Positions 26,401 through 40,627 of a stretch of DNA of 64,000 nt are shown here, piece after piece; position 1 is the first letter of the stretch, and each line of letters opens with the position of its first letter. The position numbers and the translations under genes are program-made. The DNA is from Escherichia coli. Lineage in GTDB: Bacteria > Pseudomonadota > Gammaproteobacteria > Enterobacterales > Enterobacteriaceae. The notes beneath the pieces are model-generated. The model had not been told where the DNA came from and made no database searches. It saw nothing but the letters and a program-made list of their open reading frames with translations. The stretch lies in NCBI RefSeq assembly GCF_045037415.1, contig NZ_CP173438.1, one strand, 5' to 3'.

Positions 26401-26870
26401 CGCTGGAAGATCTCACCAGCCAGCAAACAGAAGTCGAGCTGCGGATGCCGTCGCTATTGCCAGATGATTTCATCCCTGACGTGAACACGCGTCTGTCGTT
26501 CTACAAACGTATTGCCAGCGCCAAAACGGAAAACGAACTGGAAGAGATCAAAGTCGAGCTTATCGATCGCTTCGGCCTGCTGCCGGATCCGGCGCGTACC
26601 CTGCTGGATATTGCCCGTCTGCGCCAGCAAGCGCAGAAACTGGGGATCAGGAAGCTGGAAGGTAATGAGAAAGGCGGCGTGATCGAATTTGCCGAGAAGA
26701 ATCACGTTAATCCGGCCTGGTTGATTGGTTTGCTGCAAAAACAGCCGCAGCATTACCGCCTTGATGGTCCGACGCGTCTGAAGTTTATTCAGGATTTGAG
26801 CGAGCGGAAAACGCGTATCGAATGGGTACGCCAGTTTATGCGTGAACTGGAAGAGAACGCGATCGCTTAA
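23424..26870 (+). CDS. mfd: Transcription-repair coupling factor
   Basis: MPEQYRYTLPVKAGEQRLLGELTG...; superfamily-2 helicase motifs (GDVGFGKTEVAMRAA, DEEHRFG); 1148 aa from the MPEQ start. Confidence 0.96.
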   Translation: MPEQYRYTLPVKAGEQRLLGELTGAACATLVAEIAERHAGPVVLIAPDMQNALRLHDEISQFTDQMVMNLADWETLPYDSFSPHQDIISSRLSTLYQLPSMQRGVLIVPVNTLMQRVCPHSFLHGHALVMKKGQRLSRDALRTQLDSAGYRHVDQVMEHGEYATRGALLDLFPMGSELPYRLDFFDDEIDSLRVFDVDSQRTLEEVEAINLLPAHEFPTDKAAIELFRSQWRDTFEVKRDPEHIYQQVSKGTLPAGIEYWQPLFFSEPLPPLFSYFPANTLLVNTGDLENSAERFQADTLARFENRGIDPMRPLLPPQSLWLRVDELFSELKNWPRVQLKTEHLPTKAANANLGFQKLPDLAIQAQQKAPLDALRKFLESFDGPVVFSVESEGRREALGELLARIKIAPQRIMRLDEASDRGRYLMIGAAEHGFVDTVRNLALICESDLLGERVARRRQDSRRAINPDTLIRNLAELHIGQPVVHLEHGVGRYAGMTTLEAGGITGEYLMLTYANDAKLYVPVSSLHLISRYAGGAEENAPLHKLGGDAWSRARQKAAEKVRDVAAELLDIYAQRAAKEGFAFKHDREQYQLFCDSFPFETTPDQAQAINAVLSDMCQPLAMDRLVCGDVGFGKTEVAMRAAFMAVDNHKQVAVLVPTTLLAQQHYDNFRDRFANWPVRIEMISRFRSAKEQTQILAEVAEGKIDILIGTHKLLQSDVKFKDLGLLIVDEEHRFGVRHKERIKAMRANVDILTLTATPIPRTLNMAMSGMRDLSIIATPPARRLAVKTFVREYDSLVVREAILREILRGGQVYYLYNDVENIQKAAERLAELVPEARIAIGHGQMRERELERVMNDFHHQRFNVLVCTTIIETGIDIPTANTIIIERADHFGLAQLHQLRGRVGRSHHQAYAWLLTPHPKAMTTDAQKRLEAIASLEDLGAGFALATHDLEIRGAGELLGEEQSGSMETIGFSLYMELLENAVDALKAGREPSLEDLTSQQTEVELRMPSLLPDDFIPDVNTRLSFYKRIASAKTENELEEIKVELIDRFGLLPDPARTLLDIARLRQQAQKLGIRKLEGNEKGGVIEFAEKNHVNPAWLIGLLQKQPQHYRLDGPTRLKFIQDLSERKTRIEWVRQFMRELEENAIA

Positions 26871-27012
26871 TGGTAAATCGGGGGCGTTTCTGCGCCCCCA
26901 TCTGCAATATTTACAAATTCTTTGCACTTCCCTGCATTATCCGACACTGTCACCCTCCATAATTCAGACTTACCTTTTTATTACAATAACCTTATATTTA
27001 TTATGGACTTTG

Positions 27013-27975
27013 GTGATGATCAAAACGCGTTTTTCTCGCTGGCTAACATTTTTTACGTTCGCCGCTGCCGTGGCGCTGGCGCTACCGGCAAAAGCCAACA
27101 CCTGGCCGCTGCCGTCAGCAGGCAGTCGTCTGGTTGGTGAAAACAAATTTCATGTTGTGGAAAATGACGGTGGTTCTCTGGAAGCCATCGCCAAAAAATA
27201 TAACGTCGGCTTTCTCGCTCTGTTACAGGCTAACCCCGGCGTTGATCCTTACGTACCGCGCGCGGGTAGCGTGTTAACGATCCCGTTGCAAACCCTACTT
27301 CCAGACGCGCCGCGCGAAGGCATTGTGATCAACATTGCGGAGCTGCGTCTCTATTATTATCCGCCGGGAAAAAATTCGGTAACCGTATATCCCATCGGCA
27401 TTGGTCAATTAGGTGGTGACACGCTGACACCGACAATGGTGACCACCGTTTCTGACAAGCGTGCAAACCCAACCTGGACGCCAACGGCAAACATTCGCGC
27501 GCGGTATAAGGCACAGGGAATTGAGTTGCCTGCGGTAGTTCCGGCTGGACCGGATAACCCAATGGGCCATCATGCGATTCGTCTGGCGGCCTATGGCGGC
27601 GTTTATTTGCTTCACGGTACGAACGCTGATTTCGGCATTGGCATGCGGGTAAGTTCTGGCTGTATTCGTCTGCGGGATGACGATATCAAAACACTCTTTA
27701 GCCAGGTCACCCCAGGCACCAAAGTGAATATCATCAACACCCCGATTAAAGTCTCTGCCGAACCAAACGGTGCGCGTCTGGTTGAAGTACATCAGCCGCT
27801 GTCAGAGAAGATTGATGACGATCCGCAGCTGCTGCCAATTACGCTGAATAGCGCAATGCAATCATTTAAAGATGCAGCACAAACTGACGCTGAAGTGATG
27901 CAACATGTGATGGATGTCCGTTCCGGGATGCCGGTGGATGTCCGCCGTCATCAAGTGAGCCCACAAACTCTGTAA
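27013..27975 (+). CDS. ldtC: L,D-transpeptidase LdtC (YcfS)
   Basis: MIKTRFSRWLTFFTFAAAVALALPAKA signal peptide, LysM region and YkuD catalytic motif (HGTNADFGIGMRVSSGCIRL). The ORF-track 5' extension overlapping mfd is not coding. Confidence 0.9.
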   Translation: MMIKTRFSRWLTFFTFAAAVALALPAKANTWPLPSAGSRLVGENKFHVVENDGGSLEAIAKKYNVGFLALLQANPGVDPYVPRAGSVLTIPLQTLLPDAPREGIVINIAELRLYYYPPGKNSVTVYPIGIGQLGGDTLTPTMVTTVSDKRANPTWTPTANIRARYKAQGIELPAVVPAGPDNPMGHHAIRLAAYGGVYLLHGTNADFGIGMRVSSGCIRLRDDDIKTLFSQVTPGTKVNIINTPIKVSAEPNGARLVEVHQPLSEKIDDDPQLLPITLNSAMQSFKDAAQTDAEVMQHVMDVRSGMPVDVRRHQVSPQTL

Positions 27976-35729: not shown

Positions 35730-35790
35730 CAAATATGAATGCGTATATTTCTCATTTGCATTTACATACAAAATTATTCGCACACTAAAT
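35730..35790 (+). promoter_or_regulatory. fhuE promoter region with candidate Fur-binding AT-rich hexamer repeats (approximate)
   Basis: AT-rich stretch ...ATGCGTATATTTCTCATTTGCATTTACATACAAAATTATTCGC... upstream of the iron-regulated fhuE; no exact Fur box could be confirmed by eye. Confidence 0.3.
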
Positions 35791-35852
35791 ATAACCGCTC
35801 ATCACCCTGCTCCGGCATGAGCCTGACGCCAACATAAACCAAGAGATTTCAA

Positions 35853-38101: not shown

Positions 38102-39535
38102 TTAGTGGTTACGGATGTACTCATCCATCTCGGTTTTCAGGTTATCGGATTTAGTACCGAAAATCGCCTGAACACCAGAACCAGCAACCACTACGCCCGC
38201 TGCGCCCAGTTTCTTCAGGCCAGCCTGATCCACTTTAGACACATCAGCAACGCTGACGCGCAGACGGGTAATACATGCGTCGAGGTTAGTAATGTTTTCT
38301 TTACCACCAAATGCAGCAACCAGAGCCGGTGCCATTTCGCTGGTACCTGTCGCTTTTGCGTCTTCAGTCGCGTCTTCACGACCCGGCGTTTTCAGATCCA
38401 GTGCTTTAATCAGCACGCGGAAGATGGTGTAGTAAACAATGGCATAACCGATACCGACGATCGGGAACAGCCACAGTTTGCTGCTGTTACCAGACAGAAC
38501 GATGAAGTCGATCAGACCGTGCGAGAACGACGTACCGTCACGCATCCCCAGAAGAATACAGATTGGGAATGCCAGGCCTGCCAGAATCGCGTGGATGATG
38601 TACAGGATCGGCGCAACGAACATGAAGGAGAACTCGATCGGCTCGGTGATACCGGTCAGGAACGAGGTCAGCGCCGCGGAGATCATAATACCGCCCACTT
38701 TCGCGCGGTTTTCTGGTTTAGCAGAGTGCCAGATAGCAATTGCGGCAGCTGGCAGACCGTACATTTTGAACAGGAAGCCACCAGACAGTTTACCCGCAGT
38801 CGGGTCACCCGCCATATAACGCGGAATGTCGCCGTGGAAAACCTGACCTGCTGCGTTGGTGTATTCACCAATCTGCATCTGGAAAGGTACGTTCCAGATG
38901 TGGTGCAGACCAAACGGTACCAGGCAACGTTCGATGAAACCGTAAATGCCAAACGCAACTACCGGGTTCTGGTAAGCAGCCCACTGAGAGAAGGTCTGGA
39001 TTGCAGAGCCAATAGGCGGCCAAATGAAGGACAGCACAACGCCAGTAAAGATGGCAGTCAGGCCTGAAATGATCGGCACAAAGCGTTTACCGGCAAAGAA
39101 GCCAAGATACTCAGGCAGCTTAATACGGTAGAAACGGTTAAACATGTACGCTGCGATCGCACCGGAGATAATCCCCCCGAGTACGCCAGTATCCGCCAGG
39201 TGTTTAGAGGCGATTTCTTCAGCAGGTAAATGCAGTACCAGTGGCGCAACCACGGCCATGGTTTTAACCATGATGCCATAGGCAACAACTGCGGCCAGCG
39301 CGGATACGCCATCGTTATTGGTAAAGCCGAGGGCGACACCGATCGCAAAAATCAGTGGCATGTTTGCAAAGACGGAACCGCCTGCTTCTGCCATAACATG
39401 CGATACAACGGCGGGCAGCCAGCTGAAATTCGCGGAACCGACGCCCAGCAGAATACCTGCGATAGGCAGTACGGATACCGGCAGCATCAGCGATTTACCG
39501 ACCTTTTGCAGGTTAGCAAATGCATTCTTAAACAT
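38102..39535 (-). CDS. ptsG: Glucose-specific PTS enzyme IICB
   Basis: 477-aa [36 protein letters not shown]... with C-terminal IIB domain (ITRLRVSV). Confidence 0.97.
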
Positions 39536-39570
39536 AATTGAGAGTGCTCCTGAGTATGGGTGCTTTTTTT
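39536..39570 (-). promoter_or_regulatory. ptsG 5' leader / RBS region, the known target of sRNA SgrS base-pairing
   Basis: mRNA sense sequence AAAAAAAGCACCCATACTCAGGAGCACTCTCAATT immediately 5' of the ATG; SgrS is established to pair across the ptsG translation-initiation region. Confidence 0.55.
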
Positions 39571-39630
39571 ACGTTCTCACGCGTGGCAAGGGGGGAGTGC
39601 CTCGCCGTGTACAGGGCATCTAAGCGCCCT

Positions 39631-39655
39631 TTATTTATTACACAGAGTAAAATAA
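39631..39655. promoter_or_regulatory. Candidate Mlc/NagC-type operator at the ptsG promoter
   Basis: TTATTT-N13-AAATAA palindrome (TTATTTATTACACAGAGTAAAATAA) centred about 108 bp upstream of the ptsG ATG, near the expected P1 start. Confidence 0.45.
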
Positions 39656-39829
39656 TTCAGTGCCGATTTGTTTGACGGCTATCACGTTTCAACTTCAGAT
39701 CATTGGAGAAGTTGCACATTTTGACAAAACATATGTCACAATATTTCAAACGTGGTTATTCACCGCCCGATTTTCGGCGGTGAACTTTACTCGTTTTAGC
39801 CATTAATTACGAGCTTTAAAAAAACTCAT

Positions 39830-40627
39830 TCAACGGATGGATTGAAGGCGGGAAGCATCGATGTGAAACAGACGGGCGAAGTTATCGGTGGTTACCTGCG
39901 CCAGTTCTTCAACGGCAACACCTTTCAACACAGCCATGTATTCTGCAACGTCACGAACCATCGCAGGTTGATTCTCTTTTCCTCGATGCGGTACTGGCGC
40001 AAGGTAAGGTGAGTCAGTTTCCACCAGTAACCGATCCAGGGGGACATAACGCGCAGCATCGCGCAGTTGCTCCGCATTACGGAAGGTCACAATGCCGGAA
40101 AAGGAGATGTAAAATCCGAGATCCAGTAATTTACCCGCCGTTTCTCTGTCCTCTGTAAAACAGTGTAGTACGCCACCGCAATCCGTCACTTTTTCTTCGC
40201 GCAGAATTGCCAGCGTATCGGCGCGGGCGTCACGGGTGTGGACGATAACCGGCTTGTTCAGTTCACGACCAATCTGGATATGATGGATGAAGGACTCTTG
40301 CTGACGTACTTTAGTTTCCGGCGTGTAATAATAATCCAGCCCGGTTTCACCCAGCGCTACAACGCCCTCTTCTGCCGCCAGACGACGTAAATCTTCTACA
40401 TCGTAGGGATCATTCTGGTTGAGTGGATGCACGCCACAAGAAAATACGACGTTGTCGCGTTCGCCTACCAGATCCCGCATGTGTAAATAACCCGGTAATG
40501 TTGTGGCGACTGCCAGACAAAATTTCACATCGCGTGCGGCGGCTTTCGCCAGAACGTCATCCACGTCCTTATGCAAAGATTCATAATCCAGACCATCGAG
40601 ATGGCAGTGTGAGTCGACTAAAAACAT
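39830..40627 (-). CDS. ycfH: TatD-family metal-dependent hydrolase YcfH
   Basis: [34 protein letters not shown]...; start at MFLVDSHCH gives 265 aa. Confidence 0.9.

Follow-up and report, generated by a model that had tools for sequence, protein, structure and literature searches.

The ycfH-ptsG intergenic region of an Escherichia coli chromosome as the native, two-level control region of ptsG: two Mlc-type operators, a CRP site and the SgrS pairing site

Positions 39536-39829 of the 64-kb window (the whole stretch of E. coli DNA analysed here, 64,000 nucleotides in length) are, with a probability that we put at about 0.95, the native control region of ptsG, in which the gene is controlled at two levels, by transcription and post-transcriptionally. 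The region contains a proximal Mlc-type operator (O1) overlapping the start of promoter P1, a distal one (O2) near the end of ycfH, a CRP (cAMP receptor protein) site between the two, and the sequence in the ptsG leader that pairs with the small RNA SgrS. The regulation of ptsG by Mlc, CRP and SgrS is textbook knowledge and is already known. This work established the features themselves and where they lie, showed that they agree with published rules and residue numbers and stand out statistically, and measured how well they are conserved; the binding of proteins and RNA, as well as the regulatory outcomes, are taken from the literature.

The region coincides exactly with the gap between the two genes, since the A of the ptsG start codon is located at 39535 and the stop codon of ycfH at 39830-39832. 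The regulated gene, ptsG (38102-39535, minus strand), encodes the 477-aa EIICB-Glc according to both the open reading frame list and the RefSeq annotation, and a second minus-strand open reading frame, which is ycfH, terminates at 39830. Because ptsG is transcribed on the minus strand, all of the elements of 39536-39829 are read on this strand. This orientation, as well as O2 and the CRP site, had been omitted from a preliminary description of the region. In a BLAST search, a 451-bp query across the gap showed 100% identity to many complete E. coli chromosomes, in which the flanking genes are annotated as ycfH and ptsG, and the query was found in 5424 of the 5426 E. coli genomes. Only three intergenic SNPs were detected relative to K-12 MG1655, and none of them falls in the O1, O2, CRP or SgrS sites: 39769 (C/T) is in the loop of a hairpin that follows ycfH, 39665 (C/T) is between the CRP site and O1, and 39598 (A/T) is in a leader loop. 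One further SNP, at 39857, lies in the end of ycfH. Over O1, O2, the CRP site, the start zone and the entire SgrS site, the sequence does not differ from that of MG1655 at any base. Elsewhere in the window, Rfam gave gathering-level matches to the RNase E 5' UTR element rne5 (52676-53012, plus strand, 260 bits) and to the sRNA SraB (50647-50815, minus strand, 208 bits), both of which are expected in this neighbourhood.

The proximal operator O1 (39633-39655, minus strand; TTATTTTACTCTGTGTAATAAAT) lies within the palindrome TTATTT-N13-AAATAA, which the preliminary description had placed at 39631-39655 and which is present at exactly those positions. It is the sole match in the 64-kb window on either strand, and no match was obtained in any of 100 dinucleotide-preserving shuffles. 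The palindrome had also been proposed to lie where the Mlc operator overlapping ptsG P1 is expected, and this proposal holds: it covers O1, agrees with the published operator rules and overlaps the P1 start. [quoted passage not shown] With its centre at 39644, O1 shows the TT-N9-AA arrangement, with TT at 39650/39649 and AA at 39639/39638. A register centred at 39643 brings TA and AT to the invariant positions, in disagreement with the TT/AA rule, and was rejected. Therefore, the location given in the preliminary description was correct, as the operator is covered, whereas its symmetry centre, 39643, is one base away from the centre that fits the rule. All ten positions from +/-7 to +/-11 are A/T in O1, and likewise all ten in O2. 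ptsG is the reference target of Mlc, and the literature includes it among the Mlc targets that carry A/T at +/-11 (PMC4288165). The P1 start (39638 for the classical start and 39636 from deep 5'-RACE) lies 6-8 bp downstream of the centre of O1, and the operator overlaps the likely -10 region and the start site. Enrichment of Mlc at ptsG was not observed by ChIP-qPCR in MG1655 cells grown on glucose (PMC8846999); since Mlc should be released from the DNA in glucose, the missing signal in these cells is the expected outcome.

For the analysis of conservation, one genome per species was searched with a degenerate pattern corresponding to the 14-15 codons at the beginning of PtsG, a procedure that avoids a bias toward conserved upstream DNA. 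The scan gave 120 loci from Escherichia, Citrobacter, Enterobacter, Klebsiella, Kluyvera, Cedecea, Pantoea, Erwinia, Serratia, Yersinia, Rahnella, Hafnia, Edwardsiella, Pectobacterium, Dickeya, Brenneria, Lonsdalea and others, including one Vibrio. The 109 loci with at least 340 bp of upstream DNA were aligned together with the window, resulting in 110 sequences, and the upstream identity to the window ranged from 34 to 96%. The per-column agreement with the window averaged 0.62 over the intergenic region, and the conservation peaks of the region were O1, O2, the CRP site and the SgrS site (0.79-0.94). O1 was the top-ranked 23-bp conservation window of the intergenic region, at exactly 39655-39633, with a mean of 0.91 among the 110 sequences, and its TT-N9-AA was kept in 109 of 110 species. 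The exact outer palindrome TTATTT-N13-AAATAA was retained in just 52 of 110, which indicates that the outer symmetry is partly a by-product of the A/T-rich flanks.

A search of the 64 kb with the strict skeleton W5-TT-N9-AA-W5 gave three matches, against 0.48 expected, and two of the three are O1 and O2. The same skeleton yields a site in each of the K-12 ptsH, manX, malT and mlc promoter regions; the native Mlc sites number six (PMC4288165), which corresponds to these four skeleton sites plus the two ptsG sites. A weight matrix was derived from the ptsH, manX, malT and mlc sites alone, which were picked by the skeleton and not from footprints, and 63,978 window positions were scored with 20 shuffled windows as a control. 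O2 ranked first (18.1 bits) and O1 third (17.1 bits), while the maximum in the 20 shuffles was 15.8, in a test whose power is limited by the four training sites. The matrix optimum at O1 sits one base out of the TT-N9-AA register, and the register of O1 is thus certain only to +/-1 bp, the small matrix favouring a centre at 39645. The site at rank 2 (27353-27375, 17.9 bits) is within the coding open reading frame 26842-27975 and lacks AA at +5 and +6, and it was rejected as a chance occurrence. The third skeleton match, at 35772-35794 (AATTATTCGCACACTAAATATAA), precedes the start codon of fhuE (35853) by 59-81 bp. Its matrix score of 12.0 is inside the range of the shuffled sequences, and it is probably a chance match in an A/T-rich promoter.

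The distal operator O2 (39802-39824, minus strand; TTTTTTTAAAGCTCGTAATTAAT) has the TT-N9-AA skeleton and is placed 6 bp past the ycfH stop codon. From its centre at 39813 to the classical +1 of P1, which is downstream, the distance is 175 bp. This position agrees with the distal Mlc footprint reported for ptsG (Kimata 1998, Plumbridge 1998). The mean conservation of O2 was 0.79, as compared with the intergenic average of 0.62. Of the 110 species, 83 have the strict TT-N9-AA and 96 have A/T at both +/-11 positions; in many Pantoea and Erwinia species, the left half has TC instead of TT. The other native Mlc operators (ptsH P0, manX, malT and mlc) share with those of ptsG the 23-bp quasi-palindrome, TT-N9-AA, the A/T-rich flanks and A/T at +/-11, and they are likewise situated at or near the promoters of sugar-uptake genes. 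ptsG differs from them in having two operators, 169 bp apart, and the central 9 bp of O1 (ACTCTGTGT) are without the CG-rich centre of the ptsH, malT and mlc sites.

The conservation of O1 could be explained without Mlc, if the sequence were kept only as a core promoter or as a site for Fis or another nucleoid protein and its resemblance to an Mlc operator were incidental. O1 overlaps the -10 region and the start, Fis and ArcA were reported to bind the ptsG promoter region (PMC8846999), and A/T-rich DNA is common in promoters. However, the skeleton occurs again at O2, 169 bp upstream and away from P1, and was found in all four of the other Mlc-controlled promoters tested. Conservation at O1 covers the full 23 bp, with the flanks as well as the invariant TT/AA, and goes beyond a hexamer. 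Moreover, a published oligo that includes the O1 sequence was used as the ptsG Mlc-binding site (PMC2936295). We therefore consider this explanation very unlikely.

A role of the palindrome as an operator for the Mlc paralogue NagC is highly improbable, even though the logos of these two ROK-family repressors can hardly be told apart and NagC can cross-repress when overexpressed (PMC4288165). The NagC operators at nagE-nagB and galP have the same architecture and the same invariant TT/AA, and the helix-turn-helix is nearly identical. The distinction is at +/-11, where C/G is present in NagC sites of high affinity. Both ptsG sites carry T/T there, and A/T was found at both of these positions of O1 in 108 of 110 species. 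In addition, wild-type NagC does not repress ptsG, an Mlc target (PMC4288165). A NagC operator would predict that repression is lost in a nagC but not in an mlc mutant, and the published result is the opposite.

The P1 start zone extends over 39630-39638 (minus strand), with the classical start at 39638, which gives a 103-nt leader, and the deep 5'-RACE starts at 39636 and 39630. A ptsG template transcribed from -103 to +104 relative to the ATG was used previously (PMC3089445), and +1 was assigned to 39638 because the residue numbers of that paper, A82-G89 and G76-A78, fit the sequence only with this start. The range "C92 to C95" in the same paper reads GCAC here, a trivial mismatch in its wording. 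Deep 5'-RACE in K-12 placed ptsG starts at two positions, which precede the ATG by 101 and 95 nt (PMC3415461 supplement file 2), and the upstream sequences given for them are identical to the window apart from the SNP at 39665. From these mapped starts, we infer a putative -10 hexamer of P1, TACTCT (39644-39649, minus strand), whose bases are strongly conserved.

The CRP site (39668-39689, minus strand; AAACGTGATAGCCGTCAAACAA) reads CGTGA-N6-TCAAA with its centre at 39678.5, and each of its halves matches TGTGA-N6-TCACA at 4 of 5 bases. The centre is at -40.5 from the classical start or -42.5 from the 5'-RACE start at 39636, consistent with a class II position, which is expected around -41.5. 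The site is presumably the one footprinted by CRP at -40.5 on ptsG (Kimata 1997). Its mean conservation was 0.89, and the spacing from the CRP site to the centre of O1 was 35 bp in all of the 108 species scored. CRP-cAMP activates ptsG (PMC4393010).

The second level of control is encoded in the leader. The preliminary description stated that the sequence pairing with SgrS is located immediately 5' of the ATG, and it was indeed found at 39544-39563 (minus strand; mRNA nt 76-95), 9-28 nt upstream of the start codon, where it matches the verified core A82-G89. The core, nt 82-89 (AUACUCAG at 39557-39550), reads ATACTCAG in the mRNA, including C85 and C87. It is complementary to nt 174-181 of K-12 SgrS (C174-U181), which read CTGAGTAT / CUGAGUAU and include G176 and G178. 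Footprinting and compensatory mutations have identified A82-G89 as the core of the interaction (PMC3089445, PMC2760806), and the pairing pattern of SgrS with ptsG is 5-8-4 (PMC2760817). The duplex predicted here from short segments, with nt 167-188 of SgrS, likewise consists of 5+8+4 pairs, between leader nt 76-95 and SgrS nt 168-187, at -27.8 kcal/mol. This was the best value among 31,986 tiles covering both strands (mean -10.7, sd 3.0), with the runners-up reaching -26.9. Predictions with full-length SgrS or a 139-nt target were abandoned in favour of the short segments, as they gave long, loop-ridden and meaningless structures, for which other tiles scored better. The listed SgrS target string (PMC3415461 supplement file 7) is identical to the window.

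The conservation among the 110 sequences was 0.85 for the whole SgrS region, 0.94 for the core and 1.00 for the Shine-Dalgarno sequence AGGAG (39547-39551, minus strand; mRNA nt 88-92), of which the first two bases fall in the core duplex. A chance match of SgrS to a purine-rich ribosome-binding region is hardly credible: although this SgrS segment attains -25 to -27 kcal/mol at further positions of the window, so that the energy alone is not decisive, the site is the best of all tiles, corresponds residue for residue to a footprinted and genetically tested core (PMC3089445) that is highly conserved among the species, and the published compensatory-mutation tests succeeded (PMC2760806, PMC3089445). 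In comparison with the known SgrS-ptsG interaction (Vanderpool and Gottesman 2004; Kawamoto et al. 2006; Rice and Vanderpool 2011), the target is identical, with the same 5-8-4 pattern, the same core and the same overlap with the Shine-Dalgarno sequence.

The sgrS gene is outside the window and was found in 5399 of 5426 complete E. coli genomes; its presence in this particular strain, and that of mlc, is assumed from the species. Two alleles of sgrS occur in E. coli, one with at least 99% identity to that of K-12 (3230 genomes) and the other with about 88% (2157 genomes), and they differ in the 3' end of sgrT and in the terminator stem, outside the seed. Among K-12 and the two divergent copies aligned, nt 162-186 of SgrS, containing the seed, were identical. 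In one of the aligned copies, sgrT is frameshifted.

[quoted passage not shown] When these properties are placed on the present DNA, P1 transcription would start at 39636-39638 and be activated by cAMP-CRP at 39668-39689, in the class II position. Mlc on O1 would overlap the -10 region and the start, and so exclude RNA polymerase, with O2 as a second operator 169 bp upstream, just past ycfH. When glucose is transported, the dephosphorylated EIICB-Glc, which is the product of ptsG itself, would capture Mlc, and both O1 and O2 would be vacated. Under sugar-phosphate stress, the Hfq-dependent SgrS, encoded elsewhere, would pair with leader nt 76-95, and its core duplex would cover the beginning of the Shine-Dalgarno sequence, leading to a block of translation and then to RNase E-dependent decay.

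The distance between the centres of O2 and O1 has a median of 168 bp (about 16 helical turns) with an sd of 2.1, and was 166-171 in 76 of 80 species. No part of the region is less conserved than the spacer between the operators (0.45). The distance from O1 to the SgrS core has an sd of 8.2, and that from O1 to the ATG varies from 95 to 233 across the species. The constancy of the O2-O1 length in spite of the poor conservation of the spacer sequence suggests a phasing constraint and possibly a DNA loop. Mlc is a tetramer. The spacing fits helical phasing and suggests that the two operators may cooperate, possibly through looping by oligomeric Mlc. At nagE-nagB, looping between two operators is established for NagC, whereas at ptsG it is something that we infer; a literature search for Mlc looping at ptsG returned nothing relevant.

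Alternatively, the length of the spacer could be constrained by a hairpin and by the promoter P2 inside it. A GC-rich hairpin, read from the sequence as TTCACCGCC-loop-GGCGGTGAA, is located downstream of ycfH at 39759-39784 (minus strand). It is not followed by a T-run and was not called as a terminator by the scan. Among the 110 species, 81-86 have canonical bases at its inner pairs, and some of the changes are compensatory (e.g., GC 64 / CG 15); the C of the window at 39769, which is T in K-12, adds a closing G-C pair. The minor promoter P2 is presumably located around this hairpin. The deep 5'-RACE table contains no upstream P2 start (PMC3415461 supplement file 2). A sigma-70-like sequence, TTGTCA-17-AATGAT (39727-39699, minus strand), between O2 and the CRP site, is in poorly conserved DNA with no mapped start and was not adopted.

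Two further elements were observed in the leader. The first is a stem-loop, AGGGCG-CUUAGA-UGCCCU (39613-39630, minus strand; mRNA nt 9-26), which has a 6-bp stem 8 nt from the 5' end of the mRNA and appears in both the minimum-energy and centroid folds. Over the 110 Enterobacterales species, 91% of its pair cells are canonical, compared with 35-52% when the partners are slid, and none of 500 column shuffles reached 91%. Compensatory changes were found at the pair 13-22 (CG 69 / UA 26) and at the pair 14-21 (GC 52 / AU 30 / GU 26). Rfam showed no family over the ptsG leader at the gathering threshold or at E<=1, and no description of the stem-loop was found in the accessible literature, while subscription papers may cover it. 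The other element is an A7 tract (39564-39570, minus strand; mRNA nt 69-75) directly 5' of the SgrS site, whose conservation is mostly high, from 3 to 9 tenths per base and 8-9 for the last four A's. It is possibly an A-rich element to which Hfq binds. Taken jointly, we regard it as a tentative and rather unlikely reading that the Mlc operators loop via oligomeric Mlc and that the stem-loop is a cis element not described so far, which may, for instance, stabilise the 5' end and set the basal half-life of the mRNA against which SgrS and RNase E act; either of the two may already have been published.

The observations on the operator spacing and the stem-loop give small leads that can be tested on a promoter already studied intensively. 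Once the register is shifted by one base and O2 and the CRP site are included, the map becomes usable for motif training. As an anchor and not a discovery, the region fixes the identity of the window (the ycfH-ptsG-fhuE neighbourhood of E. coli), its strand and its register. The strain retains intact each known cis element that sets the level of the glucose transporter, for induction through Mlc, activation by cAMP-CRP and silencing by SgrS.
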